Positions 32,677 through 63,453 are shown, counted from the stretch's first letter. The stretch: 64,000 nucleotides of DNA from Planctomycetaceae bacterium (GCA_002722955.1 PBMZ01000076.1:11132-75131), one strand, 5' to 3'. The notes: generated by a model from the letters alone, not told the origin. A program made the numbers and translations.

Positions 32677-34191
32677 TTACTCGTAGTCCCATTTCATGAT
32701 CCAAGGATCCTGCATTCGCTTCTGAAACGCCTTCAGCTTCGCTTGATAGGCTTCCAGCACCTTGGCGAATTGAGGATTGATGGCTAGGTTCTTGGACTCA
32801 TTTGGGTCTGCATAGATGTCGTAAAGTTCGAAGCGGGGTCGATTTATGTACTGTCCCACCGTTTTCTTGCCATACGGGGCATCTTTGCCTTTGCGGAATT
32901 GAGCCTGCCAACTGGAAGCCGCCCAGAGGTCTGACGCGAACGGATACGGCAAACCATGCGCGATATTCCAGATCAGCTTGTACTTCTTATCCCGTACGAC
33001 TCGCATGGGGTAATACATTTGAATTTCATGAAATGTGTGCGACGCGAACACGGTCTCCCAGTGCTCGGCATCCGCATTACCAAGGATCGGGATCCAAGAT
33101 TTGCCGTGATAGGACGTGTATTGGGCTCCGCGGTTCTCCTTGAGATTCTCGCCCCGATCCTTCCAGTACTTATTGGCATTCAGCGGGTCTTGAGGCCCGT
33201 TGGTCTTGGCATCCAGCCCGCCAGCAAAGTCCAGCAGCGACGGAGTGATATCGATGTGGCTGATCATTGCCTTCGAGACCACGCCGCGTTTTTTCTGATA
33301 GGGGTTACGGACGACGAACGGCACCTTCAAGCCACCTTCATAGACGGTAGTTTTGCCGCCCGAAAAGGCCATGCCGTGATCGGATGTAAACACGATCATG
33401 GTTTTGTCATAGAGACCAGCTTCCTTCAGGATTTCCACCAAGCGACCGACGCCCTGGTCGATCCGCGAGCACGATTGGTAGTATTGGGCCAGTTCTTCGC
33501 GAGTCTCGGCGGTATCGGGCAAGAAGTCTGGGATCGGCACCTTGGCTGGATCATAGAACACCTCGTCGATGCCCTGGTGAGAGCCACGGTTTGGTTTGTT
33601 GCCGAACAGATCGGCCTTCAATTCCAGTTTCGAGGTTTGGTCTTTCCCGCCGCCTCGGTGAGGGTCGCTGGTCCCGAAATAGAGGAAAAATGGCCGCTCA
33701 TCTTCCGTGTCGGTGATAAACTCGCGAGCCGCATTGGCCATCTGCAGAGCGTTGCGGCCGTTGCCCTTGATGTATTTCTCGAATCGGTAGACCTCTTCGG
33801 GAGCCACGTGGTACTTGCCAATCTGAGCGGTCCGGTAGCCGGCTCGAGCCAAGACTCTCGGCATGGCCAAGCTGATCACGTTGTAAAACGACGAGAACTT
33901 GTGAAACGCGTGCTGGTGACCGTACTGCCCGTTTCGGTGGTTGTGCAGGCCAGACATGACAACGGACCGGCTGGCGCTGCAGCTAGCCGTTGTGGCAAAA
34001 GCGTTGGTAAACCGAGTGCCATCGGTGGCTAAGGCGTCGATGTTGGGGGTCACCGCAATCGCATCGCCATAACATCCCAGCGTGGGGCTTTCATCATCGG
34101 TGATGAAAAAGATGATGTTCTTCTCGGCGGCCTGCGAAAGCGAGCAAGCGAGCAGCAATAGCAAACACGAAAAGCCGATTGAGCGACTCAT
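32677..34191 (-). CDS. Sulfatase (formylglycine-dependent, arylsulfatase A / N-sulfoglucosamine sulfohydrolase-like), secreted
   Basis: 504 aa ORF. It has a signal peptide MSRSIGFSCLLLLLACSLSQAAE and the N-terminal metal motif IIFFITDDESP. The active-site motif CSASRSVVMSGL is the C-x-A-x-R variant. A FTSDHG motif is present. Confidence 0.9.
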   Translation of the reverse strand: MSRSIGFSCLLLLLACSLSQAAEKNIIFFITDDESPTLGCYGDAIAVTPNIDALATDGTRFTNAFATTASCSASRSVVMSGLHNHRNGQYGHQHAFHKFSSFYNVISLAMPRVLARAGYRTAQIGKYHVAPEEVYRFEKYIKGNGRNALQMANAAREFITDTEDERPFFLYFGTSDPHRGGGKDQTSKLELKADLFGNKPNRGSHQGIDEVFYDPAKVPIPDFLPDTAETREELAQYYQSCSRIDQGVGRLVEILKEAGLYDKTMIVFTSDHGMAFSGGKTTVYEGGLKVPFVVRNPYQKKRGVVSKAMISHIDITPSLLDFAGGLDAKTNGPQDPLNANKYWKDRGENLKENRGAQYTSYHGKSWIPILGNADAEHWETVFASHTFHEIQMYYPMRVVRDKKYKLIWNIAHGLPYPFASDLWAASSWQAQFRKGKDAPYGKKTVGQYINRPRFELYDIYADPNESKNLAINPQFAKVLEAYQAKLKAFQKRMQDPWIMKWDYE

Positions 34192-34672
34192 GAGATTCTC
34201 CGGTTGGTAATCAAAGCACGCTCCGCGTGTTCGTTCGTGGCAGTTTTCCGCATCGAGCCTGAATTGCCACTTTGCGTATCCATAACAATTGCGCCCAACC
34301 GCCTACTATCCGAGAATTCTCCCACGAATCAAGCCTCGGCTCTGGTGAATCCAGACGACGGAATGCGATGAGGCATTTTTCGAAACACTAATCGGCGCTA
34401 ATTCTGCGCGCATTGAGAATTCGTAACGCGCTCGACTTTATGTCGGGGGTTCTCGCGTTTTTTCACTACGACACGACGAATAGTGCAGAGACGCGAGAAC
34501 CCCTGAGTTCAACTCAGGGGCGTTTGAACAATTGAAGGACAGAGCTAGTCTTTTCTGATTAGCGTTCAATAGTGTCGATTAGCGTTCCCAACCAGTTTCC
34601 CCCGTTCCCTTCCCCGAACGCATCGAAGTTGATAGAAGCCAACTGACGAATCTATGATCTTTGGGGAGCGGA

Positions 34673-35053
34673 ATGATGTTGGATGGTGGCGAAACCCTGT
34701 ACGCGCGGCTTGGCGGTTACGATGCGATCTCGGCGGTGGCGGATAATCTGTTACCGCGATTGATGGGCGACGATCAATTGGGCCGCTTTTGGGCTCATCG
34801 AGGCGATGACGGAATCGCTCGAGAGAAACAGTTGCTGATCGACTTCTTGGCTCATAACGCTGGTGGCCCCATGTATTACACGGGGCGCAACATGACCTTG
34901 GCTCACAAAGGCATGAGAATCTCCGAGTCCGACTGGTCCAGATTCTTGGGCCACTTGAACAACACGCTGGATCATTTCAATTTGGGCGAAGCCGAGCGAA
35001 ACGACGTGCTGGGCTTCATCGAAAGCACGAAGTCCGAAATTGTCGAGGCGTAA
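34673..35053 (+). CDS. Truncated hemoglobin (group I trHb-like 2-on-2 globin)
   Basis: ETLYARLGGYDAISAVADNLLPRLMGDDQLGRFW...GGPMYYTGRNMTLAHKGMRI aligns by eye with the trHbN/GlbN pattern (LYxxLGG...DxxLxxFF...GGPxxYxGxxMxxxHxxxxI, with a proximal His). The track start is TTG at 34661. I prefer the in-frame ATG at 34673. Confidence 0.8.
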   Translation: MMLDGGETLYARLGGYDAISAVADNLLPRLMGDDQLGRFWAHRGDDGIAREKQLLIDFLAHNAGGPMYYTGRNMTLAHKGMRISESDWSRFLGHLNNTLDHFNLGEAERNDVLGFIESTKSEIVEA

Positions 35054-35055
35054 TC

Positions 35056-35622
35056 GTGCAAGCTCCGATCACTGAACAACTCGAGCGCGTATTCGCCAAC
35101 AAAGGTGACTCACAGTACGGATTCGAAGCCGTCACGCAACTGGAACACGCATTGCAAGCCGCGACCCTTGCCGAGGCAGAAGCGTCGACGCCCGAGTTAA
35201 TCGCGGCGGCGCTGTTGCACGATATCGGTCACTTGCTACACGATTTGCCTGATGATGCGACGGTGCGAGGTATCGACGACCGGCACGAAGTTCTGGGGCA
35301 ACGATTCCTGGAAAGCTACTTCGGCTCGGCAGTCACCGAGCCGGTGAAGTTGCATGTGGACGCGAAACGATTTCTGTGTGCCACGGACAGCAGCTACGAG
35401 TCTCAACTGAGCGAACCGTCGCGGCAGAGCATGAAGCTTCAGGGCGGAATCATGACGCCGGCCGAGGTCGAAGCGTTCTCGGCATTCACTCATCATCAAG
35501 AAGCCGTGCGATTGCGGCGCTGGGACGATTTGGCAAAAGTCGTCGATCTGAAGACGCCGCCGTTGACACATTTCCTGGAAATCATCGCGGCCGAAGTTCC
35601 CATTTCCGAGGTGTCCGAGTGA
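35056..35622 (+). CDS. HD-domain protein of the phosphonate-degradation-associated clade (PhnZ-like / TIGR03276-type)
   Basis: 188 aa with the HD signature LLHDIGHLLHD. The GTG start lies 2 nt after the globin stop (TAA 35051-35053). Size and genomic context (FAD oxidoreductase plus PhnX downstream) match the Phn-HD family as I remember it. Confidence 0.75.
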   Translation: MQAPITEQLERVFANKGDSQYGFEAVTQLEHALQAATLAEAEASTPELIAAALLHDIGHLLHDLPDDATVRGIDDRHEVLGQRFLESYFGSAVTEPVKLHVDAKRFLCATDSSYESQLSEPSRQSMKLQGGIMTPAEVEAFSAFTHHQEAVRLRRWDDLAKVVDLKTPPLTHFLEIIAAEVPISEVSE

Positions 35623-36773
35623 CTCGCACGCAGCCCGAAGCATCGTTCGACGTCGCCGTTGTTGGTGCTGGAATTGTGGGGCTTGCGCATGCGTGGGTGG
35701 CCGCTCGACGTGGACATCGCGTGGTTCTTTTCGATCGATCGCCGCAAGCTCATGGTGCTTCGATCCGCAACTTCGGCATGGTGTGGCCCATCGGGCAGAC
35801 TCTGGGCGTGTGCATGGAGATCGCGCTTCGGTCCAGAGAACTCTGGCTCGAGTTTGCCGAACAGTCCAGGGCATGGGTGAATCCGTGCGGTTCGATCCAC
35901 TTGGCACACCGCGAAGATGAGCTGCCAGTGCTCGAGGAGTTTTGCTCGCTGGCTAAAGGCGACGGATTGCCCGTTCGCATGCTGTCGAAGCAAGAAGTCT
36001 TAGACCTTTCTCCGGCCGCCAATCCGTCCGGACTGCTTGGTGGGATGCACAGCGATTTGGAATTGTGCGTCAATCCGCGCGAAGTGATCGCTGGGATGCC
36101 CGAGTTCTTGATAGAGAAATGTGGCGTCGAAACACACTTCAACACGCTGATCACTCAGGTCGGCAGTGGTCAATTGACGGCTTCTGATGGGCGAAGCTGG
36201 CAGGCGGATCGAATCTTCGTCTGCAGCGGCAGCGATTTTCAGACGTTATTTCCTCGCGTCTTCCTGGGATCAGGACTGCGGAAGTGCAAGCTACAAATGA
36301 TGCGCACGAAGCCTCAAGCCAGCGGCTGGCGAATCGGGCCACATTTGGCAAGCGGCTTGACCTTACGGCACTATCAATCGTTCACAGCCTGCCCGTCACT
36401 CGAAGCGTTGAAACAAAGGGTCGCCAATGAGACGCCCGAGCTGGATCGATTCGGAATCCATGTGATGGCCTCTCAGAACAACGCCGGCGAAGTGATCCTG
36501 GGTGACTCACACGAGTATGACGACCAACTGACGCCTTTTGATAAGTCCCAGATTGAAGCATTAATGCTGCGAGAACTTGCTAAGATCATCAAGCTGCCCG
36601 ATTGGGAAATCGCCGAACGATGGCACGGAGTTTACGCCAAGCATCCCCATGCGTTGATTTTCTACGCCGAGCCAGCCGATGGAGTTCATGTTACCGTCGG
36701 TCCTGGAGGTGCCGGCATGACGATGTCCTTCGGGTTGGCTGATCAGGCTTGGCGAGATATCGAAGAAGTTTGA
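35619..36773 (+). CDS. FAD-dependent oxidoreductase (DAO family, TIGR03364-type aminophosphonate oxidoreductase)
   Basis: The GTG at 35619 overlaps the HD-gene stop (GTGA). Translation VTRTQPEASFDVAVVGAGIVGLAHAWVAARRGHRVVLFDR contains the GxGxxG Rossmann motif right at the N-terminus. The 465 aa track ORF starting at 35376 is an upstream extension that overlaps the HD gene. Confidence 0.8.
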   Translation: MTRTQPEASFDVAVVGAGIVGLAHAWVAARRGHRVVLFDRSPQAHGASIRNFGMVWPIGQTLGVCMEIALRSRELWLEFAEQSRAWVNPCGSIHLAHREDELPVLEEFCSLAKGDGLPVRMLSKQEVLDLSPAANPSGLLGGMHSDLELCVNPREVIAGMPEFLIEKCGVETHFNTLITQVGSGQLTASDGRSWQADRIFVCSGSDFQTLFPRVFLGSGLRKCKLQMMRTKPQASGWRIGPHLASGLTLRHYQSFTACPSLEALKQRVANETPELDRFGIHVMASQNNAGEVILGDSHEYDDQLTPFDKSQIEALMLRELAKIIKLPDWEIAERWHGVYAKHPHALIFYAEPADGVHVTVGPGGAGMTMSFGLADQAWRDIEEV

Positions 36774-36889
36774 ATGGAATGTCCAATGCCCAACAAGGAA
36801 TTTCGAAGGTCGAAGTAAGATGTTCTTGTCTGGCACGCAACTTCTTCCTTGGACCTTCGAAATTCCTTATTGGACATTGGACATTCCAT
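36774..36889. repeat. REP-like inverted repeat: 38 nt arms, 36/38 complementary, 40 nt spacer
   Basis: The left arm is ATGGAATGTCCAATGCCCAACAAGGAATTTCGAAGGTC (36774-36811). The right arm is GACCTTCGAAATTCCTTATTGGACATTGGACATTCCAT (36852-36889). It lies between the FAD-oxidoreductase stop and the phnX start. Confidence 0.9.
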
Positions 36890-36928
36890 CTCACACCACA
36901 ATTGCTACTAAGAAAACCGTAATTCACC

Positions 36929-37744
36929 ATGTCAGAGCCGTTTCGTCATTTGAAAGCCGTTATCTTCGATTGGGCGGGAACTACAGTTGATCACGGCAGT
37001 CGTGCGCCAGCATTGGTCTTTCGTGAAATCTTTCATCGGCAGGGCATCGAGATCACGTTGGCTCAAGCACGCGGGCCGATGGGGCTTGCCAAGCGAGACC
37101 ACATTGCCGCCCTTCTACGGCTGCCAGATGTTCGCGAAGCTTGGCTTGGGCAACACGGTGCCGAGGCCACGGACGCCGACATTGATTCGCTGTACGCCGA
37201 CTTTCTGCCGCTTCAAAAAGAAACACTGGTAACGCACACCGAAATCATCGATGGTGTGGTTGATTCGGTCGCCCAGTGTCGTCAGCGCGGGCTTTCCATC
37301 GGGTCCTCGACTGGATATACGCACGAGTTGGTTGATGTCTTCGCCGAGCAAATCGCGCAGCAAGGCTATCGCCCCGATTGCGTTCTGTGTTCAGAAGATG
37401 CTCCGCAGGGTCGTCCAGCGCCGTGGTTGATCTTCAACGCCGCTCAGCAAATGGGCGTCTTCCCAATGTGCCACATTGTGAAAGTGGATGACACGACTCC
37501 CGGCATCGAAGCGGGCAAGAACGCCGGTTGCTGGACGGTCGGAATCACTCGGACTGGAAACGAAGTAGGTCTCACCGCGGCCGAGTTCGCGGCTCTCTCG
37601 GCAGACGAACAAAACGAGCGGCTCACTACAGCAGCCAACAAGCTAAAAGCGGCAGGTGCCGACTTCATACTAGAGTCCGTGGCTGAGCTGATCCCGCTAC
37701 TGGAAGAAATCAACGATCGGCTCAAGAACGGAGAGCGTCCGTAA
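36929..37744 (+). CDS. phnX: Phosphonoacetaldehyde hydrolase (phosphonatase, HAD superfamily)
   Basis: 271 aa. The N-terminus AVIFDWAGTTVDHGSRAPALVFREIFHRQGIEITLAQARGPMGLAKRDHI closely matches the PhnX consensus (VIFDWAGTTVD...PMGL.K.DH). Confidence 0.9.
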   Translation: MSEPFRHLKAVIFDWAGTTVDHGSRAPALVFREIFHRQGIEITLAQARGPMGLAKRDHIAALLRLPDVREAWLGQHGAEATDADIDSLYADFLPLQKETLVTHTEIIDGVVDSVAQCRQRGLSIGSSTGYTHELVDVFAEQIAQQGYRPDCVLCSEDAPQGRPAPWLIFNAAQQMGVFPMCHIVKVDDTTPGIEAGKNAGCWTVGITRTGNEVGLTAAEFAALSADEQNERLTTAANKLKAAGADFILESVAELIPLLEEINDRLKNGERP

Positions 37745-37750
37745 TCTCTC

Positions 37751-38256
37751 CTACTTCCCAGGCAACTCCCAGACTACCGAGAAATCGTCCTCATGAAACA
37801 TGCAATTGACGGCCCGTGACAAGAGCACCATTGACGGACCGTCGCCTGGGTATTGATTCAGCAGCTCGCCGAGTACTTGCACGGCTTTGTTGTGATCTTG
37901 CTGTTCGAAGTGATCCAAGGCCTCGACATAAAGGTCCATTTTTTCTCGATCGCTCGCCGACGCGTTGACAAGTTCGTAAAGCTGAATTGGTTGGTCGATA
38001 TTGACAACCCGCGCGCTGCACACTCGGCGAGAATCAAAAGATTTGTCCAAACCCGCAAAGGTCGAGCCTGTTGATGACCGATTTTGGTTTCGGTGCGCTC
38101 GGCGATGATCAGCCGCCAGATCGGATCTGTTTTGCGCAGCGTGTACGCATCGTCTTCGCCAGTGCATTGCCGACCCAATTCGACAGGGCCAGAAAACTCA
38201 CCCGAATAGACTGTGCTTGAACCTTCTAGGATTCTGACTCGGAAGTCCGCGCTCAT
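37751..38256 (-). pseudogene. Remnant of an FHA-domain adenylate/guanylate cyclase gene: N-terminal FHA start joined out of frame to the cyclase C-terminal tail
   Basis: Frame A (37858-38256) starts MSADFRVRILEGSSTVYSGEFSGPVELGRQ..., which is FHA-like. Frame B (37751-38167) ends ...SFDSRRVCSARVVNIDQPIQLYELV...LLSRAVNCMFHEDDFSVVWELPGK, the typical end of a class III cyclase domain plus tail. The catalytic core is missing, with only ~500 bp in total. Confidence 0.5.
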
Positions 38257-38437
38257 GACGTTAGATTATGGTCTTAAGGGTCCTCGACATCCGTGTGAGG
38301 ATTGGATCGAATGACCTAATACCAACGGTAACGGTACTCCCCCTTTCAAAGTCAAAGCCGGTTACGCTCTACTGAGCACCAGCTATCTCATAGATTATCC
38401 GAGAATTGGACAGCGAAACAACAAGAGATCGCAAGAA

Positions 38438-39367
38438 ATGCAGGAACCTTACCTCATCCAACTCGGAAATCGACTCAGCCAAGGCCTAACTCAGATGGCG
38501 CCCGACCGTCGCGAGCGGCATCGTCAGTTCATTTTAAGCCACCAGATGGAAGATGGCGGATTTAGGGGGCGTGAGGGGGACTCGGACCTGTATTACACCA
38601 GCTTTGCGGTTCGAGGCTTGGCGATGTTGGGCGGTTTAGGAGGAATAGAGTGCGATCGGCTGTTCGAATACGTCAAGAGTCACCGTGACCAGCAACTGAA
38701 CGTGGTCGATCTCGTCAGTTGGCTGTATACCGCATTGGCGGTCCAGATTTTTGGCGGGCAAGACGTCTTTGCCGATGCCAACGGTGATTGGCCTGATAAG
38801 ATCGCCGAGCAGATGGAATCCGTCCGCACGGAAGACGGTGGCTACGCGAAATCCGTCGAGGGAGCGTCTGGCAGCACGTACCATACGTTTTTGGTCGCGT
38901 TGACTTACGAGCTGATTAGCAAGCAGGTACCTCGGCCAAATTCCTTGGTCCAATTTGTCTACGATCGCCAGCGAGATGATGGTGGCTTTGTCGAGATCGC
39001 GGCGATGAAACGAAGCGGCACGAATCCGACTGCTGCCGCAGCCGCCTTGCTGAAGATCTTCGACGCCTTGGATGACGAATTGTGTGATGATGTCCGCGAG
39101 TACTTGGGCTTGGTGCGAGGAGCCGAGGGAGGTTTTCAGGCCAACACCAGAATTCCCTTCGCCGACGGTCTCTCGACATTCACGGCATTACTGACAACGC
39201 TGGATTTGGACTTGGATCCCGTGATCTCGCCCGCGAAGATTGAGGAGTTCATTGCTGGAGATCTCGAGTTCCCAACGGGCGGCTTTCGAGGTGCCAGTTG
39301 GGATGAGCAAGCGGACGTGGAATACACTTTTTATGGGTTGGGCACGTTGGGGCTTCTTTGGTCATGA
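38438..39367 (+). CDS. Prenyltransferase / squalene-oxidase repeat (alpha-alpha toroid) protein, geranylgeranyltransferase beta-subunit-like
   Basis: 309 aa with five repeats of the (E/D)(D/G)GGF type: EDGGFRGREG, EDGGYAKSVEG, DDGGFVEIAA, AEGGFQANT and PTGGFRGASW. Confidence 0.8.
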   Translation: MQEPYLIQLGNRLSQGLTQMAPDRRERHRQFILSHQMEDGGFRGREGDSDLYYTSFAVRGLAMLGGLGGIECDRLFEYVKSHRDQQLNVVDLVSWLYTALAVQIFGGQDVFADANGDWPDKIAEQMESVRTEDGGYAKSVEGASGSTYHTFLVALTYELISKQVPRPNSLVQFVYDRQRDDGGFVEIAAMKRSGTNPTAAAAALLKIFDALDDELCDDVREYLGLVRGAEGGFQANTRIPFADGLSTFTALLTTLDLDLDPVISPAKIEEFIAGDLEFPTGGFRGASWDEQADVEYTFYGLGTLGLLWS

Positions 39368-44710: not shown

Positions 44711-46621
44711 CTACTTTGTCTCAACAACCGGCGCCGAGAATTCGGTCGTTGTTGCTTTGGCGTAAAAGCCGACGTACTCGATAGTTTTCACATTTGATGG
44801 CAATACAAACTTGAACATCGATCCGTTGACAACAGCTGTGCCAGTACCTTTCGACACATCAAGTTTGACCTCGATCTGAAAAGTGTCTCCTTGCTCGAAG
44901 CTGGCCTTCTTGGTGGCAACGCTACCAACATTGCCCCAGCCACCAGCAAACGCGACGTGTTGGTTCATGCCGATAGCTGTGCCAATTTTGAAGCTGTCTT
45001 TATTCGTTGGCTTCGACCCAATAACAACGGCACCATTTCGTGTCGTTCCGGTCTTTGGACCGCTTCGATACTTCAGTCGGATTGTCGCCGTTTGCTTGAT
45101 CGGTTTCTCCAACTTTTGAAAGGCGAGCCCCTCTGTTTGTGGTGACATGGAGTAGCCAAAATCCGCGGCAGTGATGTTCGCACCCAGGACAACATCGAAA
45201 TCACCCGTCGTATCTTTACCGGCTGCAGGCTCGACAGATTTCTTGCCACCACGATTTCGAGGTTTGTCAAGTTTCCACCAATCGGGGCCTTCCTTGAGAA
45301 CGGTGGCGTCGTGTTTGATCAACTTTGCCCGCATCTCGGCGAACTTGTCGGGGAACTCGGCCGCGACGTTGGTTGTTTCCTGCCAATCCTTAGCGATGTT
45401 GTATAGCTCGAACGAAGTCAAGTTGTCGGAGCCAACGATCTTCCAGTCACCAATTCGCATGCCAAGTCGGTACTGTGTTGGGGCGAGATGATTTCGCCAA
45501 TACAGCGGTTGCTCACGTTGAATTTCCTTACCCGCGAACAGCGGCAGCAAGCTTGTCCCGTCAATCGTACGATCACCTGGAAGCGGAATGCCCAACGCTT
45601 CGCAGATTGTCGGAAAGATGTCCGAGCCAATGACCGGCGTGTCACTGACCGAGCCCGCTTTGATCTTTCCCGGCCAGCGAACAATTCCCGGAACGCGAAT
45701 CCCACCTTCGTGAGTCGCACGCTTGCGGCCTCGCAAGCCGCCTGTCGACCCGCGCGTTCGGCCGGTCTTCCCACTGCCTTCGGGACCGTTGTCCGAAGTA
45801 AAGAAGACGACGGTGTTGTCGCGATAACCCATTTCGTCGACGGCTGCCATCAGCTTACCGAAGGCATCGTCCATCTGAGTGATGTTGCCATGGTGCTGAC
45901 GAATTCCCTCGGCTTTGATATTCGCGTAGTGCTTCATGTATTCCGGCGCGGACTCGATCGGCAAATGCGGTTCGTGAGTCCAAACGGTGATGAAGAACGG
46001 AGTCTTCGATTTCTTTCGGCCTTTAAGCCAGTTGATCGCTTCATTCGCAGCGATCACAGCGCTGGGACCTTCCATACGACCGACGGCCTTCCGGTTGCGC
46101 ACGTAGTTCGTCGGATTCATGTGGTGAGGCGCCGCGTTGTTCTGCGTTGCCAGCCAATGATCGTAACCGTGATTGTCTGGCTGAGGTTGCTCGTCAGAAT
46201 TGAACTTCCCATTCAAGTGCCACTTGCCGGCATGGCACGTTTCGTAACCCCGTTTCTTCAACAGGGCCGCAATCGTGATCTCACTTTCACGCAGATGATA
46301 CATGCTGCCGCTTGGAATCCACCGCCAGACCCCGTTTCGATACGGCGTACGCCCCGTCAGAATCGCTGACCGGGATGGCGAACACACCGAGCATCCCGAA
46401 TAACACTGCGTCAACCGCAATCCCTCAGTGGCGAACTTATCCAGGTTCGGCGATTTGATGATTGGATGACCGTAACAGCCCAGGTCCCCCCAACCCTGAT
46501 CGTCTGTCAGAAAGACAATGAAGTTGGGTGTTTCCTTGGACGATTCATCAGCGCCATGGGCAACGGCCAATTGACAAAGGACTGTGACGACAAGGGCCAG
46601 AGTGCGGATGCAAAAACTCAT
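44711..46621 (-). CDS. Sulfatase (arylsulfatase A family) with an extra ~180 aa C-terminal beta-rich domain
   Basis: It has a signal peptide MSFCIRTLALVVTVLCQLAVAHG, the motif FIVFLTDDQGWGDLGCYGH and the active site CSVCSPSRSAILTGR. I place the start at ATG 46621 (M30 of the 665 aa track ORF). Confidence 0.9.
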   Translation of the reverse strand: MSFCIRTLALVVTVLCQLAVAHGADESSKETPNFIVFLTDDQGWGDLGCYGHPIIKSPNLDKFATEGLRLTQCYSGCSVCSPSRSAILTGRTPYRNGVWRWIPSGSMYHLRESEITIAALLKKRGYETCHAGKWHLNGKFNSDEQPQPDNHGYDHWLATQNNAAPHHMNPTNYVRNRKAVGRMEGPSAVIAANEAINWLKGRKKSKTPFFITVWTHEPHLPIESAPEYMKHYANIKAEGIRQHHGNITQMDDAFGKLMAAVDEMGYRDNTVVFFTSDNGPEGSGKTGRTRGSTGGLRGRKRATHEGGIRVPGIVRWPGKIKAGSVSDTPVIGSDIFPTICEALGIPLPGDRTIDGTSLLPLFAGKEIQREQPLYWRNHLAPTQYRLGMRIGDWKIVGSDNLTSFELYNIAKDWQETTNVAAEFPDKFAEMRAKLIKHDATVLKEGPDWWKLDKPRNRGGKKSVEPAAGKDTTGDFDVVLGANITAADFGYSMSPQTEGLAFQKLEKPIKQTATIRLKYRSGPKTGTTRNGAVVIGSKPTNKDSFKIGTAIGMNQHVAFAGGWGNVGSVATKKASFEQGDTFQIEVKLDVSKGTGTAVVNGSMFKFVLPSNVKTIEYVGFYAKATTTEFSAPVVETK

Positions 46622-46801
46622 GAATGAATCCTCAATTGCAGATTGTGAGCATCGATCATAGACCAACCACCGGAGTGCGAGCCAGTCACCATGACTCTCA
46701 ATGAGCATCCAATGGTGGTACAGTTGTCAGAAGCCCGGCTTTTTGAAAAAGCCGGACTTCACTCCCAACTCACTCACGCTTTGACGTTCTGATCTTTTCG
46801 T

Positions 46802-46862: not shown

Positions 46863-47687
46863 ATGATCAATGCCTTTGGGTTACTGTATGGCATGCCGTT
46901 GATCTCGTTGGACAACTTGGAAGACGACCGGCTTGAGGTTTACCGCAACCTGAAGCACACCAATCGCACGCGCTGGCAAAACACGTTTATTGCGGAGAGC
47001 AAACGTGTGGTGAGGCGACTCGTGGAGAGCGATTTTGAAATCGAATCCATCTTGGTCAGTCATAAGCGAATCGAGAGCATCAGTGATTGGCTGCCGGCCG
47101 ACGTGTTGACGTTTGTGTTGCCGCATAGCTTGATCGAGCAATTGATCGGATTCAACTTTCACATGGGAGTTATGGCCTGTGGCAAGCGAAAGATCAATCC
47201 GCTGTTGTCCGATTTTGTGAGCACAACGCGACGCTCGACCATCGTTGCTTGCCGTGACGTGATGGATCCCGAAAACATGGGCACGATCATTCGGCTTTGC
47301 ACGGCTTTTGGTGTCGACGGATTGCTGTTAGGCCATCGCAGTGCGGATCCGCTGTCTCGCCGATCATTGCGCGTGTCGATGGCCAACGCTTTGAACTTGC
47401 CCATCATTCAATCATCCGACTTTCAGCAGCACCTCAAGGAATTGCACGAGAGGTGGCAATACGATGTTGCCGGCACTGTGCTGGATGACTCTGCCGAAAA
47501 TCTAACACAGGCAAACCGTTCTGACCGGCTCGTCATTGTCTTCGGCAACGAATCCGAGGGATTGGATCAAGAAACGCTGAGTCTTTGCAATCGCCAAATC
47601 ACGTTGCCCATGCAAGGCGGCACGGACTCGGTCAATGTCGCGGTTGCTGCGGGCATCTTCCTCTATCATCTGACGAGACTAGTTTGA
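46863..47687 (+). CDS. TrmH/SpoU-family RNA 2'-O-methyltransferase
   Basis: 274 aa with the C-terminal SPOUT motifs IVFGNESEGL and LPMQGGTDSVNVAVAAGIFLYHL. The start could instead be M11 at 46893, because the ATG at 46863 abuts the palindrome. Confidence 0.8.
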   Translation: MINAFGLLYGMPLISLDNLEDDRLEVYRNLKHTNRTRWQNTFIAESKRVVRRLVESDFEIESILVSHKRIESISDWLPADVLTFVLPHSLIEQLIGFNFHMGVMACGKRKINPLLSDFVSTTRRSTIVACRDVMDPENMGTIIRLCTAFGVDGLLLGHRSADPLSRRSLRVSMANALNLPIIQSSDFQQHLKELHERWQYDVAGTVLDDSAENLTQANRSDRLVIVFGNESEGLDQETLSLCNRQITLPMQGGTDSVNVAVAAGIFLYHLTRLV

Positions 47688-49139
47688 GTCGTCGTCGTCT
47701 TTCTTCTTGTGACGTTTCCTTCTTGGCTTGGGTTTCGAGTCGGCAATCTTCTTGTCCCATGGCAAGGCTGCTCGCTTACGGTACTGAGGTCGAGCATCTC
47801 GCTTGGGCATTTTGTCGACAACCTGCTGGAACTTTGCCAAGACCGGCGCGAGATCGGCGGAGTCTCCGTTGAGCAAATTCGATCTCTCCAGAGGATCGTT
47901 CTTCAGGTCGTACAAGGCATTGATCTTGGCACCTTCATCGACCCAAACCTTGTAGCGTTTGTCTCGGATAATGCGTGCCGTGTAATCTTTGACACCACGA
48001 ACTCCGTCTTTATCCAGCTTGGCGGCACCATGTCCCAAGGCCATGATCCAGTCGCGCGGTGAATCCTTAGCCTTGCCCAAGATCAGTGGCGCGAACGAGC
48101 GGCCATCCAAAGTCGCTTCTTCTGGCAACATCGCCCTGCCCAACTCTGCAAAGGTTGGCAACAAATCAGAGAAGTCGGTGAGAGCATCTGTCTCGGCACC
48201 AGCGGTGACAAGTCCGGGACAATTCACGATGAAAGGCTCGCAGACGCCGCCTTCGAATTTCGAGGCCTTTCCGCCTGACGGACGCTTGCCCTTCACAGTT
48301 CCTCGTAACCCGCCGGAAGTGCCATTGTCGGTCGTGAAGATCACGATTGTTCGTTCACGGATTTTAAGTTTATCCAACGCACCGACCAAACGTCCCACCA
48401 AGTGATCTGTGTAGTTCACCATCGCTTTGTGCTTATCCAATTTGCTACTGACCTTCGGTTCGTTTGGTGTATGCACCAACGGACCGTGAGTGAGTGCCAT
48501 TGGGAAATAGACCATCATTGGTTCGTCGCGATGCTTGGTCATGAAATCGATTAAGAAGTCGCAATACACGTCGGGGCCGAATTTGTCTTTGTGCGTCTTG
48601 CTACCCGTGCCGCTTGTGTGAATGTAGGCGTCCCAATAACGCTCGGCACTGGGTGGGTTCTGTGCTTCGAAGCCCGTCCACACACACCACTCGTCGAATC
48701 CATGTTTTTTGAGAGCTTCGGGTTCGACGCGGAAGTCGTTGATTTGCCACTTGCCCGCGATCGCTGTCGAGTAACCCGCTGACTTCATCACCGTGGCGAA
48801 GGACGTGTACTTCTCCCAATCGAAGTAGCCAACTCCCCAACGCGGCACATCCCAGTGATTGACCCATCCCGTTCGCCACGGATACTGGCCCGTTAACAGA
48901 GTGACTCGAGTCGGCGTGCACTGCGGCATCGAATACGCGTTATGGAATTTCAAGCCACCCTTGGCCAGAGCGTCGATGTGTGGAGTCTCGATGTTGTCGG
49001 CACCGTAGCAACTGATCCAGTCCTTGCCCAAATCGTCAACCATGATGAAGACGATATTTGGCTTCTCGACGGCTTCCGATTGTTCGGGACTAAGAATGCA
49101 AACCACAGTGAGTATGAAGACAGGAAAAGTTTTGAGCAT
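47679..49139 (-). CDS. Sulfatase (arylsulfatase family), secreted, with a Lys/Arg/Asp-rich C-terminal tail
   Basis: It has a signal MLKTFPVFILTVVCILSPEQSEA, the motif NIVFIMVDDLGKDW and the active site QCTPTRVTLLTGQ. I place the start at ATG 49139 (M41 of the 526 aa track ORF). The 3' end overlaps the convergent trmH-like gene by 9 nt. Confidence 0.9.
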   Translation of the reverse strand: MLKTFPVFILTVVCILSPEQSEAVEKPNIVFIMVDDLGKDWISCYGADNIETPHIDALAKGGLKFHNAYSMPQCTPTRVTLLTGQYPWRTGWVNHWDVPRWGVGYFDWEKYTSFATVMKSAGYSTAIAGKWQINDFRVEPEALKKHGFDEWCVWTGFEAQNPPSAERYWDAYIHTSGTGSKTHKDKFGPDVYCDFLIDFMTKHRDEPMMVYFPMALTHGPLVHTPNEPKVSSKLDKHKAMVNYTDHLVGRLVGALDKLKIRERTIVIFTTDNGTSGGLRGTVKGKRPSGGKASKFEGGVCEPFIVNCPGLVTAGAETDALTDFSDLLPTFAELGRAMLPEEATLDGRSFAPLILGKAKDSPRDWIMALGHGAAKLDKDGVRGVKDYTARIIRDKRYKVWVDEGAKINALYDLKNDPLERSNLLNGDSADLAPVLAKFQQVVDKMPKRDARPQYRKRAALPWDKKIADSKPKPRRKRHKKKDDDDSN

Positions 49140-49359
49140 GATGAAGTTCTGAGACCGGTTGATTTGAGAAGTTTGTGAGGTCAAGTGTGCTCGCAGATCA
49201 CCTGTTTGAGATGTTAGGAGACATGGCTCGACTTTAACGGTTTTGCTTACTGTAGGCAATTTGCTGCTTAGTTCGTTCGCAGCGGCTTCTCGTCCTCAGT
49301 CTGTAACGATTGACGGAATTGAAGGTCTTCTGCTGAATTCGCGGAACCCTCGTTCCGAT

Positions 49360-49583: not shown

Positions 49584-51638
49584 ATGCGAGTCTCGTCACA
49601 GCTAATTGTCGTCGTAGCCACAGGCTGCCTGTTGAGCAGCCAAGTGTCTGCGGCGGAGCCATTGCTCAAACGCTTCACGAAGCTATCGTTTGTTGGTCGG
49701 AAAACCGGCGAACAAGATCAAACCGGTCGCGTCATCATTCCCGTTATTCAAGAAACCGAAGAAGCAGAATCAGCTGACGATGAAGCTGCCGGGACATCCG
49801 AGGGCGAAATACCAACGATTCCCGAAACCGAGGTCACGGCCGAGCCGTTTCCAAGATCGCCGCTTTCCAATGACAACGTCCTAACACCGACGCGAACCGT
49901 GAAGCCGCGCGGCCGCGTTGGTAGCTCGGTCACGGTGATCACTGAAGAGCAAATTCGGCAAAGCCAACACACGTACGTTCAAGATGTCCTGCGTACTGTG
50001 CCAGGATTGGATATTGCTCGGAGCGGTGGCCCAGGACAGATCACAAGTGTCTTCTTACGCGGCGGTAAGAGCGAGCAGACGAAGGTTTTTCTCGACGGAA
50101 TTCCCATCAACGATCCCAGCAACGCGGCGCGGTCATTTGATTTTGGCTCGCTAACCTTGGACAACATCGAGCGAATTGAAGTTCTCAGAGGCGCTCAAAG
50201 TACGCTTTACGGATCGGATGCCATCGGCGGTGTCATCTACATCACAACGAAACGCGGCGACGGTCCGTTGACGGTTCGAGCAACCTCGGCCGGCGGCACT
50301 TTCGACACGTTCAATCAGTCTGCAAGCCTCAGCGGCGGCAACGACAAGTTCTATTACTCTGTTGGTGGCTCGTTCTATGAAACAAACGGCTTTTCTGCCA
50401 TCAGCAAGAACCGCGGCGGGCAGGAAAACGACGGATTCCGCAACGGCACGGTTTCTGGTCGGATGGGTTGGATTCCAACAGAGTCGATCGATGTTGACTA
50501 TGTGTTCCGTTACAACGATTCCGATGCGCAAATCGACGATAGCTTTACAGTTTCTGATGATTTGATCCGCAAGGTCTTGAATGAATCCTTCTTCTCTCGG
50601 ATTCAAACTCGGATGACGTCTTGGGACGGGAAGCTCGAACAAATTGCGGGTTACAACTATGTCAACTACAACCGTGCCGACACGAATTCTGGAATCTTCT
50701 TAGCCCCCGAATTCGAGGGACGGACAGTTCAATTCGACTATCAAGCCAACTTGCTGTTTTGGGATAGCTGTCGCCATGAGAACATTCTGACGGTTGGCAC
50801 GCACTACTTGGACGAGGCCGCCAGCGATTCGTTCAGTACGCAACGACGTCGTCGCTATAACCGATCGGCCTTCATTCAAGACCAGATCAGCATCGATGAT
50901 CGATTGTTCTTGACGATCGGTGGTCGCAGTGACTTTTACAGCTTGGCCGGAAGCACAGAGACGTATCAGGCGACAGGACGATACGAATTGAGCGATGAGC
51001 GGACAGCCATTCATGCTTCGATCGGAACTGGCTTCCGAGCCCCCTCGTTCTCTGAGCTTCAGTTTGGTCCAAACCTGCGTCCTGAAGAAAGCAAAGGCTG
51101 GGAGTATGGCGTCGAATACGCGTTAAACAATGGTCGCTTCATCTTCGATGCCACTTACTTCCGCAACGATTTCAAAGACCAAATCGCCTTCGATTTCAAT
51201 ACGTTTACCTTGCAAAACATCGGCAGTGCCTTGGCTTCGGGCGTCGAAGTTGCTGGCACGCTGTACGTTGCCGAGGCAAGCTATGTCACGGCGACTTACA
51301 CGCACACGGACACGCGAGATCGATCGGATGGTCAAGAGCTCGTCCGACGTCCGCGTCACAAATTCAATGTGCGTTACAATCAACGATTCTTGAAGAACAA
51401 GGCGAACGCCAACTTCGGATACCGCTGGGTCGACGATCGCCGCGACTTTGGCGGAATTCTGGACGACTACTCTGCACTGGACATGGCGCTCTCGTACAAC
51501 GTCAGCGACCAGCTTCAACTGTTCGCTCGAGTCGACAATGTGCTCGACGAAATCTACGAAGAGGTGATCAATTTCGCGACACCGCGAGTTTCCGCATTCG
51601 CTGGCGCGACGATTACGTTTTCCGGCAGCAAGAAGTAG
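49584..51638 (+). CDS. btuB: TonB-dependent outer-membrane receptor, vitamin B12 transporter BtuB-like
   Basis: 684 aa with signal peptide MRVSSQLIVVVATGCLLSSQVSAAEP. The plug-domain region DVLRTVPGLDIARSGGPGQITSVFLRGGKSEQTKVFLDGIPINDP...IERIEVLRGAQSTLYGSDAIGGVIYITTKRG resembles E. coli BtuB. An aromatic-rich C-terminal barrel end is present. A B12 riboswitch lies upstream. Confidence 0.85.
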   Translation: MRVSSQLIVVVATGCLLSSQVSAAEPLLKRFTKLSFVGRKTGEQDQTGRVIIPVIQETEEAESADDEAAGTSEGEIPTIPETEVTAEPFPRSPLSNDNVLTPTRTVKPRGRVGSSVTVITEEQIRQSQHTYVQDVLRTVPGLDIARSGGPGQITSVFLRGGKSEQTKVFLDGIPINDPSNAARSFDFGSLTLDNIERIEVLRGAQSTLYGSDAIGGVIYITTKRGDGPLTVRATSAGGTFDTFNQSASLSGGNDKFYYSVGGSFYETNGFSAISKNRGGQENDGFRNGTVSGRMGWIPTESIDVDYVFRYNDSDAQIDDSFTVSDDLIRKVLNESFFSRIQTRMTSWDGKLEQIAGYNYVNYNRADTNSGIFLAPEFEGRTVQFDYQANLLFWDSCRHENILTVGTHYLDEAASDSFSTQRRRRYNRSAFIQDQISIDDRLFLTIGGRSDFYSLAGSTETYQATGRYELSDERTAIHASIGTGFRAPSFSELQFGPNLRPEESKGWEYGVEYALNNGRFIFDATYFRNDFKDQIAFDFNTFTLQNIGSALASGVEVAGTLYVAEASYVTATYTHTDTRDRSDGQELVRRPRHKFNVRYNQRFLKNKANANFGYRWVDDRRDFGGILDDYSALDMALSYNVSDQLQLFARVDNVLDEIYEEVINFATPRVSAFAGATITFSGSKK

Positions 51639-54541: not shown

Positions 54542-54700
54542 ATGTTTTCACTGCCACTGTTGACCAAAGATCTGATCGAGCAATCGGGGCGGCAGCGGAC
54601 TTACTTCATCCGGACGCTGTTGGCGGTGGTGCTGTTTACCGTTCCGATCATCGAATTCGGTGATATGTACGTCTACGGCGGCGAGTACGCACAACAGCCA
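54542..54700 (+). pseudogene. Possible 5' fragment of an ABC-2-type permease-like gene
   Basis: MFSLPLLTKDLIEQSGRQRTYFIRTLLAVVLFTVPIIEF resembles the N-termini of planctomycete ABC-2 permeases (this is my recollection). The frame then runs into the opposite-strand vWA gene and loses protein-like character. Confidence 0.3.
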
Positions 54701-55118
54701 GGCATGTCGCCTCCTCGCCATTCGTGGCAACCGGTAATCGGTCGATGGCCTTCCGAATCTCTGAAAGCTTCGCCGTCGGTTGGCGAGTCATCTGATGGAT
54801 TCGATCACTAAAGCCAAACATCGATGTCAACATACGTGAATCGGCATCACCTGCGGGCTCCGGAAGCATCGCCAATTCTTCAAAGACCTTGCCGAATAGT
54901 TTGCGAATCTCCTGTTGATCGTCCTTCATGCTGGGCGATTCGTCGAACAGCCAAACGACATGAAGCGGATCTTTCGCACGTTTCCAGTCCAACGACAACC
55001 TTGCCAAAACATCACGGTAGCTCGTGAGTCGAATCGAGTGTTTGCTTTGGTCTTGGGCCGAACAGACCGTGATCATCGAGACTGATAAGAACATTGCAGC
55101 GCATGAACGAAACATCAA
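54648..55118 (-). CDS. Secreted von Willebrand factor A (vWA, MIDAS DxSxS) domain protein, apparently 3'-truncated
   Basis: It has a signal MMFRSCAAMFLSVSMITVCSAQ, the MIDAS motif VVWLFDESPSMKDD and the following helices/strands up to ...AIDRLPVATNGEEATCLAV. The ORF then ends in an Arg-rich non-domain tail (VVRTRRRRRTYHRIR). Confidence 0.6.
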   Translation of the reverse strand: MMFRSCAAMFLSVSMITVCSAQDQSKHSIRLTSYRDVLARLSLDWKRAKDPLHVVWLFDESPSMKDDQQEIRKLFGKVFEELAMLPEPAGDADSRMLTSMFGFSDRIHQMTRQPTAKLSEIRKAIDRLPVATNGEEATCLAVVRTRRRRRTYHRIR

Positions 55119-62727: not shown

Positions 62728-63453
62728 TCAACGGTCTGCAACGGGAAACGCGATTTGAAACCGCGTGCCGCGTTCCAATTCGCTTTCACAAGAGATCGTA
62801 CCATGATGCGCCGTGACAATCTTCCTTACGGTAGGTAATCCGAGGCCGCTTCCGCCGGATTTGGTGGAATAAAAGATGTCGAATATCTTGTCGCGAGTCC
62901 GCTCGTTCATCCCGGCGCCATCGTCAATCAGCACCAACTGAACTTCACCGTCGAGGCTCAACGTTTGAATTTCAATGCGGCCGCCGTCCGGCATCGCTTG
63001 CTGAGCGTTCAGGGCCAGATTCATCAGGATTTGACGAATCAGCTTTTGGTCCAGCTTGACTCTGGGCAGCCCCGAGGCCAGGTGCGGACTAATCTCGACG
63101 TTGTACTCGGCAGCTTGCGGCTGAAAGAACTCGATGAATTCCGTGACAACCTGATTCAAGTCCGACTCGGTCAACTCCAACTCGCCGACTCGAGCAAACT
63201 GCAAGAAGTCGTCCAGAATTTCCTGCAAGTGTCCGCATTCTTTCTGGACCGTGCTGACCTTGCGGACCATGCGTTCTCGCTGAGGAATGTCGCCCTCGTT
63301 CAGGTCCTCGGTAAGCAACTCAAGATTCATGCTGATCGTCGACAGCGGATTCTTGATCTCATGAGCCAGCGCACCGGCAAGCGCCGCAATCTCTGCGTAC
63401 TGGTCCAGCAACCGCTGCCGTTCAGATTCTTCCAAGTGAGTGCTCACGGACAT
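62728..63453 (-). CDS. Soluble sensor histidine kinase core (HisKA + HATPase_c only)
   Basis: 241 aa. The H-box is LAHEIKNPLSTI, the N-box is LMNLALNAQQAM, G1 is IDDGAGM and G2 is GGSGLGL. There is no TM or recognisable input domain. Confidence 0.85.
   Translation of the reverse strand: MSVSTHLEESERQRLLDQYAEIAALAGALAHEIKNPLSTISMNLELLTEDLNEGDIPQRERMVRKVSTVQKECGHLQEILDDFLQFARVGELELTESDLNQVVTEFIEFFQPQAAEYNVEISPHLASGLPRVKLDQKLIRQILMNLALNAQQAMPDGGRIEIQTLSLDGEVQLVLIDDGAGMNERTRDKIFDIFYSTKSGGSGLGLPTVRKIVTAHHGTISCESELERGTRFQIAFPVADR

Follow-up and report, generated by a model that had tools for sequence, protein, structure and literature searches.

Does a truncated haemoglobin gene that ends 2 nt before a set of genes for phosphonate catabolism take part in that pathway, or has the pathway come to lie behind a gene with which it has no functional connection? 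This question is raised by a stretch of 64,000 nt from a Planctomycetaceae bacterium (GCA_002722955.1 PBMZ01000076.1:11132-75131), referred to here as the window, with positions counted from its first nucleotide. Four open reading frames (ORFs) on the plus strand occupy positions 34673-37744, encoding a globin, an HD-domain protein, a flavin adenine dinucleotide (FAD) dependent oxidoreductase, and PhnX. A preliminary description of the sequence had placed four same-strand genes here and assigned them to these families; all four ORFs were confirmed at these positions, and each protein scores above the cut-off of its family. The genes, with the evidence for each, are as follows:

34673-35053, plus strand: group-I (N-type) truncated haemoglobin, 126 aa (Pfam match, solved relatives, and predicted fold)
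35056-35622, plus strand: HD-domain mixed-valent diiron oxygenase of the PhnZ/TmpB family (TIGR03276), 188 aa (profile hidden Markov model (HMM) and alignment with homologues of solved structure)
35619-36773, plus strand: predicted FAD-dependent aminoethylphosphonate oxidase of the PbfD2 type (TIGR03364), 384 aa (HMM and identity to PbfD2)
36929-37744, plus strand: phosphonoacetaldehyde hydrolase PhnX, 271 aa (HMM and alignment with the Bacillus cereus enzyme)

The linkage of the globin to the other three genes is found in a single species. It is probable that the trio was joined behind a normally stand-alone globin gene by a rearrangement specific to this lineage (operon remodelling or promoter capture), and that the pathway neither requires the globin nor includes it as a conserved member.

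Gene junctions and recurrence of the arrangement

The spacing of the genes is the feature that first suggests an operon with the globin at its head. The globin stop codon TAA (35051-35053) is followed by the dinucleotide TC and then by the GTG start codon of the HD gene at 35056, giving a gap of 2 nt, and the TGA stop codon of the HD gene shares the sequence GTGA (35619-35622) with the GTG start codon of the FAD gene, giving an overlap of 4 nt. Both junctions had been described previously in these terms and can be read directly in the sequence. The motif GAGG is present 8 nt 5′ of the HD start codon, and likewise 8 nt 5′ of the FAD start codon. The position of the HD start agrees with the family model, in which residue 5 of the protein is aligned to position 3 of TIGR03276, and reading of the sequence revealed no other in-frame start codon near the 5′ end of the gene. 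The claim of minimal spacing throughout the locus holds for the globin/HD and HD/FAD junctions and fails for the last one: FAD and PhnX are not tightly spaced, because 155 nt lie between them, nearly filled by a hairpin of 116 nt. The base composition of the cluster gave no sign of a foreign origin.

The species is a marine planctomycete, and the identical four-gene arrangement is found on five of its contigs from different samples (L081-L085), one a scaffold of Tara Oceans and the rest short contigs of further assemblies; it is fixed within the species. Since it is seen in one species only, the adjacency of the globin is not above chance across the family.

Recurrence was assessed from both sides of the junction. 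For the survey anchored on the globin, 274 relatives were confirmed in species-representative genomes and the best 80 were kept (62-80% identity). These loci come from Planctomycetota and from metagenome-assembled genomes labelled Deltaproteobacteria, Rokubacteria/Methylomirabilota, Nitrospirae, Acidobacteria, Binatia, Gammaproteobacteria, and others. Examined out to distances of up to 8 kb from the globin, none of the 80 has a homologue of HD, FAD, or PhnX. When all ORFs within 4 kb were clustered, no gene family besides the globin recurred at more than seven of the 80 loci, so guilt by association gives the globin no function; a neighbour cluster with members at 52 loci proved to be the antisense ORF of the globin itself and was set aside. 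Furthermore, for each of the four closest globins from metagenomes (78-83% identity), the gene that begins 62-200 nt downstream is an unrelated one: it encodes a PSCyt1/PSD1 protein in one case and an AP_endonuc_2 protein in two, and in the fourth a small ORF precedes the gene for an NYN protein. In each of two samples (SRR15322232 and SRR19040531), a close relative of the globin and a close relative of the cluster are found on separate contigs with different neighbours, which suggests, short of proof, that the two are unlinked in sister organisms.

The survey anchored on the phosphonate genes kept 80 metagenome loci out of 450 HD candidates (HD 51-64% identity). The FAD gene is present at 55 of these and PhnX, or a PhnX-like HAD protein, at 49, and a globin at none. 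Divergent globins were also absent when the 80 loci and five further contigs (L172-L176; 85 in all) were searched by tblastn (E<=10) or with a profile HMM of the globin subfamily (E<=1). The nearest relatives of the cluster are on 11 contigs (L172-L182; FAD 73-75%, HD 66-71% identity), none of which has a globin 5′ of the HD gene. The genes at this position are DUF5690 and a Zn-dependent alcohol dehydrogenase (ADH) of the PbfG type in L172 and L177-L181, an AMP-binding enzyme gene in L174-L176, and unrelated genes in L182. The nearest marine relatives (L172 and L177-L181) share a conserved operon, DUF5690 - Zn-ADH (PbfG-type) - HD - PbfD - PhnX, from which the FAD gene is missing in L181; DUF5690 is a putative transporter and a plausible phosphonate importer. 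The locus in the window has the HD-FAD-PhnX order in common with these operons (L177-L180; 66-75% identity), as well as the same 4-nt overlap of HD and FAD (L177-L179), whereas it has a globin in place of DUF5690 and the alcohol dehydrogenase, and it also has the 116-nt hairpin between FAD and PhnX.

The preliminary description had put the globin forward as a component of phosphonate operons and had called for a survey of gene neighbourhoods. The linkage recurs at none of the 80 globin loci, none of the 80 HD loci, and none of the 11 nearest-relative contigs; it is confined to contigs of the same species, and no other relative examined has it. As far as these data reach, the linkage is unique and not conserved in relatives, the outcome that the description itself had named as speaking against its proposal.

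A separate observation concerns freshwater metagenomes (L094, L106-L157, and others), where an apparently uncharacterised arrangement, FAD - HD - HAD, is the commonest context of TIGR03276 genes, with a HAD protein only 22-30% identical to PhnX that may be a PhnX-like protein of the TIGR03351 type.

The phosphonate genes and their published counterparts

The HD protein scores 224.6 bits against TIGR03276 (‘phosphonate degradation HD-domain oxygenase’; cut-off 214.6) and aligns with TmpB (6NPA, E=5e-34) and PhnZ (4MLM, E=4e-25). Its motifs LEH, LHD, RHE, LHV, and WDD line up with the corresponding motifs of both, and the N-terminal Tyr-Glu pair is kept (QYGFE opposite DYIGE), bearing out the resemblance to PhnZ-type diiron oxygenases that had been noted earlier. 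In PhnZ structures, the metal ligands are His / His-Asp / His / His / Asp. The protein thus has family membership and ligand motifs in common with the oxygenases of the PhnY/PhnZ, TmpA/TmpB, and GmPhnY*/GmPhnZ1 pairs; in contrast to these pairs, no 2-oxoglutarate hydroxylase partner was found among the ORFs scanned in the window. Scores fall below the equivalog cut-offs for PhnZ1 (hydroxymethylphosphonate; 173.9 against 300) and for TmpB (the trimethyl derivative of 1-hydroxy-2-aminoethylphosphonate (HAEP); 167.5 against 300). Because of these scores and the missing partner, the protein presumably acts on a 1-hydroxy-phosphonate that is already formed, such as (R)-HAEP.

PhnX is assigned with 339.7 bits against the TIGR01422 equivalog (cut-off 220) and E=4e-69 against the B. 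cereus phosphonatase. The nucleophile motif DWAGTTVD, with its Asp, and the cap-domain Schiff-base Lys in PMGLAK are aligned with those of the B. cereus enzyme.

The FAD protein scores 468 bits against TIGR03364 (cut-off 285), and enzymes of this type have been named PbfD (Zangelmi et al. 2023, iScience, PMC10590968). It is 53% identical to PbfD2 of Mariniblastus fucicola over 372 aligned positions (residues 10-379 of 384) and 29% identical to PbfD1, where the reference sequences were machine-read from Figure S2 of that paper and may contain small errors. The context is also of the PbfD2 type, with the FAD gene clustered with phnX and no phnW in the window. In M. fucicola, PbfD2 carries out the O2-dependent oxidation of 2-aminoethylphosphonate (2-AEP) and N-methyl-AEP to phosphonoacetaldehyde; the genome is without phnW, whose place is taken by PbfD2, and PhnX then frees phosphate (PMC10590968). 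The earlier suggestion that a TIGR03364 enzyme provides PhnX with its phosphonoacetaldehyde is right, and has been published for a planctomycete cluster with the same gene content.

The gene cluster of M. fucicola consists of pbfD, phnX, and a phnZ homologue (Figure S1 and Table S1, PMC10590968), the last described as ‘presumably involved in an (R)-HAEP degradation process’. In a paper from 2026, phnZ is shown in example clusters with the HEP dehydrogenase gene pbfG (Figure 2b, PMC13576164), and pbfG clusters are described there for Planctomycetota, Pirellulales among them. The locus in the window and the pbfD2-phnX-phnZ cluster of M. fucicola have in common the phylum, the three enzyme families, and the lack of phnW. 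No globin is reported in M. fucicola, however; the likeness is one of gene content, and the activities of the proteins in the window are predicted from homology. The combination of HD, FAD, and PhnX genes with no PhnW or PhnY is an already published cluster type. In agreement with the preliminary description, which had pointed out that both were missing, neither the PhnW aminotransferase nor the PhnY 2-oxoglutarate dioxygenase was found among the plausible ORFs scanned from 31.6 to 62.5 kb, nor was a phosphonate ATP-binding cassette transporter; the scan of the window left out the ORFs at 54648-55118 and 62728-63453 as well as smaller ones. A search of the literature found no paper that links a truncated haemoglobin with phosphonate catabolism, consistent with the statement that an operon of this kind led by a globin is undescribed.

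Together, the three enzymes would serve the O2-dependent scavenging of phosphate from natural aminophosphonates. By homology, PbfD would convert 2-AEP or N-methyl-AEP and O2 into phosphonoacetaldehyde, NH3 or methylamine, and H2O2, and PhnX would convert phosphonoacetaldehyde into acetaldehyde and phosphate. The HD diiron oxygenase would act, with no PhnY partner, on pre-formed (R)-HAEP or a close analogue to give glycine and phosphate. On this evidence, the locus adds one more instance of the published PbfD-PhnX(-PhnZ) route among marine Planctomycetota.

The globin and its position in the locus

The first gene encodes a protein that is intact and of full length, and its C-terminus (...STKSEIVEA) is that of the family consensus. 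Gene callers choose the second ATG, at 34676, which gives 125 aa. The Pfam model Bac_globin (PF01152) is matched with E=1.1e-12 and 48.6 bits (gathering threshold 21) over profile positions 1-119 of 121, and no NCBIfam model is matched. The best relatives of solved structure are group-1 truncated haemoglobins (from Tetrahymena, HbN of Mycobacterium tuberculosis, and from Shewanella), the AlphaFold model (pLDDT 80) fits the M. tuberculosis protein trHbN with a TM score of ∼0.8, and the top ∼25 Foldseek matches to this model are all group-I truncated haemoglobins. The proximal His F8 is His78, which is aligned to His73 of the Tetrahymena protein and is invariant in the subfamily. Also invariant are Phe39, at or next to CD1, and, within the Gly-Gly motifs, G14, G15, and G64, with G65 nearly so (>=90%).

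The distal side of the haem pocket is different. In characterised group-I truncated haemoglobins, the pair Tyr B10/Gln E11 stabilises bound O2. HMMER alignments with the Tetrahymena protein and its Y25F and Q46E mutants (3AQ5, 3AQ7, and 3AQ8) place Leu27 at B10, Glu51 at E7, and Leu55 at E11, so the globin lacks this hydrogen-bond network, which is typical of the family and not strictly defining for it. Compared with M. tuberculosis trHbN and Tetrahymena pyriformis trHb, the 2-on-2 fold, the proximal His F8, and the Gly-Gly hinge motifs are shared, whereas Leu at B10 and E11 and Glu at E7 set the globin apart, and identity is only 28-29%. From general globin chemistry, the apolar pocket formed by Leu B10 and Leu E11 would be expected to bind O2 more weakly than canonical trHbN. 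These three residues are invariant or nearly so throughout the subfamily, and, being common to all of it, the distal Leu residues are no adaptation to the phosphonate locus.

The subfamily is of interest in itself. The search returned 6338 relatives of the globin at E<=1e-5, the top 120 of which are all 70-83% identical to it, and the best-matching members of this very large group are 62-83% identical across Planctomycetota and several other phyla. Such conservation is far higher than is usual among globins. Its occurrence across phyla with no conserved neighbours may be the more interesting lead and deserves its own study.

How, then, did a globin of this widespread type come to precede the phosphonate genes? 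In the lineage-specific rearrangement that we favour, the DUF5690 and ADH front end seen in the marine relatives would have been lost from the species and the trio placed 2 nt after the globin stop codon. No homologue of DUF5690 or of the PbfG-type ADH is present anywhere in the window, and remnants of the genes that neighbour relatives of the globin (mechanosensitive channel and AP_endonuc_2) were not found in it either. A promoter would not fit into the 2-nt junction; the trio is thus probably read from that of the globin, a case of promoter capture, and translation of the HD gene would use the GAGG supplied by the last codons of the globin. The sequence GAGGCGTAA at the 3′ end of the globin gene is also present in a relative (L086), and the Shine-Dalgarno-like GAGG therefore pre-existed as Glu-Ala-stop codons. 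The value of the locus would lie in a clean case of operon remodelling, in which a catabolic trio has shed the transporter and dehydrogenase genes at its front and been joined exactly to the end of a gene unrelated to it, and in the caution that tight gene spacing alone is no proof of functional linkage.

Several considerations weigh against this reading. Given the 2-nt junction, expression of the globin together with two O2-consuming enzymes is very probable, and this would be in keeping with its recruitment as an accessory; how, and in which direction, the rearrangement took place is inferred and not reconstructed, and the single transcript is deduced from the sequence. The sample of relatives, although large, is also not exhaustive, the closest genomes being at 80% identity for the globin and 75% for FAD.

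The likeliest alternative, although we regard it as unlikely, is that the globin was recruited in this lineage as an accessory of the O2-dependent phosphonate enzymes. It might buffer O2 for PbfD and the HD protein or bring it to them, consume the H2O2 formed by PbfD, shield the diiron site from NO, or serve as a redox partner in keeping this site as Fe(II)/Fe(III). Both enzymes encoded downstream are of O2-using types (PbfD, PMC10590968, and the PhnZ family), and co-transcription with them is probable, with translational coupling possible from the 2-nt gap and the GAGG 8 nt before the HD start. The stability of the arrangement on the five contigs from different samples would also fit recruitment, as would an unusual apolar pocket with O2 expected to be held more loosely than in canonical trHbN. 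This same pocket, however, with the same invariant residues, is found in stand-alone members of the subfamily whose neighbours change from locus to locus in many phyla, and the globin of the window has no locus-specific specialisation in its sequence. Recruitment is also difficult to reconcile with the absence of recurrence in other lineages, whether the globin or the cluster is used as the anchor, and with characterised and related PbfD clusters that work without a globin (PMC10590968). A lineage-specific helper role has no comparative support and is unlikely. A particular form of it, in which the globin with its Leu B10/Leu E11 pocket was co-opted as first cistron and supplies O2 at low tension, removes the H2O2 made by PbfD, or keeps the diiron site mixed-valent, is slightly less likely still. 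Were it true, this would be the first case in which a globin serves C-P bond cleavage as a dedicated accessory, and a real partnership would address O2 supply to, and protection in vivo of, diiron HD oxygenases and flavin oxidases.

We give even less weight to the possibility that the globin is transcribed separately from the trio, which would be driven by a promoter inside the globin ORF or by unrelated read-through, perhaps under phosphate-starvation control, so that the adjacency is without regulatory meaning. In the nearest relatives the HD gene sits in an operon with upstream genes of its own, the sole promoter-like match 5′ of the globin is at the level of chance, and a single mRNA is not proven by sequence, all of which leave room for separate units. 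The 2-nt gap and the Shine-Dalgarno-like GAGG in the last codons of the globin, on the other hand, fit a polycistronic message, and a consensus scan, which does not cover planctomycete promoter types, found no promoter-like hexamer pair inside the globin ORF. Finally, it is very improbable that the 126-aa protein has the globin fold and some other role that does not involve haem binding: replacement of the canonical Tyr B10 and Gln E11 by Leu, the lack of an NCBIfam match, and a conservation across phyla far above that usual for globins could be read in this way, but the subfamily keeps His F8, Phe39, and both Gly-Gly motifs with little or no variation, the match to the Pfam globin model runs end to end, and the predicted fold resembles trHbN.

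Non-coding elements and surrounding genes

Three further features lie close to the genes:

34557-34587, plus strand: direct repeat, two copies of GATTAGCGTTC with a start-to-start distance of 20 nt, ∼90-115 nt 5′ of the globin start; a speculative candidate operator
34629-34658, plus strand: weak sigma-70-like promoter match (TTGATA-18-TATGAT, 10/12 matches), just 5′ of the globin start
36774-36889, no strand assigned: nearly perfect hairpin of 116 nt in the FAD-PhnX spacer, with 51-nt arms that are 90% complementary

The hairpin has a predicted folding energy of −72.6 kcal/mol (z = −9.5). The FAD-PhnX spacers of the nearest relatives (L177-L180) are 46-60 nt long, with no structure larger than a small stem (−4 to −21 kcal/mol); by this sequence comparison the hairpin is lineage-specific. 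It could be an RNA stabiliser, an mRNA processing site, or an inserted palindromic element. A search within the window found one copy, and the idea of a repeated element was dropped. When Rfam was run over 34100-38500, the hairpins gave only sub-threshold matches to microRNA precursors, which are meaningless in a bacterium.

Within the window, GATTAGCGTTC has five matches at <=1 mismatch, compared with 0.92 expected, and the two exact copies form the tandem pair at 34557-34587. This pair may be a binding site of a protein of the response-regulator type. The exact pair is found only on the same-species contigs L081-L085, with scattered single-mismatch matches in the other loci fetched, and for this reason a role as shared operator was discarded. 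The scan for sigma-70 consensus sites gave one site, where 1.8 are expected in shuffled sequences, and is thus not above chance. The regions upstream of the globin do not align among relatives and show no conservation.

The intergenic region between the globin and the divergent sulfatase gene also contains an imperfect inverted repeat at 34425-34524, with 44-nt arms and a core stem GGGGTTCTCGCG...CGCGAGAACCCC, followed by a second small hairpin. A 12-nt repeat, TATCCGAGAATT, present at 34307 and 38396, was rejected, as by our own estimate ∼0.5 chance matches are expected in 4.3 kb.

Upstream of the globin, the divergently transcribed sulfatase gene (32677-34191) is followed by what is apparently one giant gene on the minus strand (bases 1-31.6 kb), called as 11033 aa on a same-species contig (L081 1-2942) and with no Pfam match listed in the gene table. 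On the other side, 37751-38256 on the minus strand, convergent to PhnX, contains a pair of ORFs (138 and 132 aa) that overlap in different frames and are probably degenerate. At the equivalent position of a same-species contig only one gene of 62 aa is called, and the pair may be a frameshifted or decaying gene. Beyond it are a prenyltransferase-like gene and genes for an Na+/H+ antiporter-family protein and a TAXI/NMT1-like binding protein, and further downstream more sulfatases, a TonB-dependent receptor, and others. Three sulfatase genes (32677-34191, 44711-46708, and 47679-49259) are found within 17 kb, together with the gene for the TonB-dependent receptor at 49584-51638, a combination typical of the polysaccharide-degrading genomes of marine planctomycetes.

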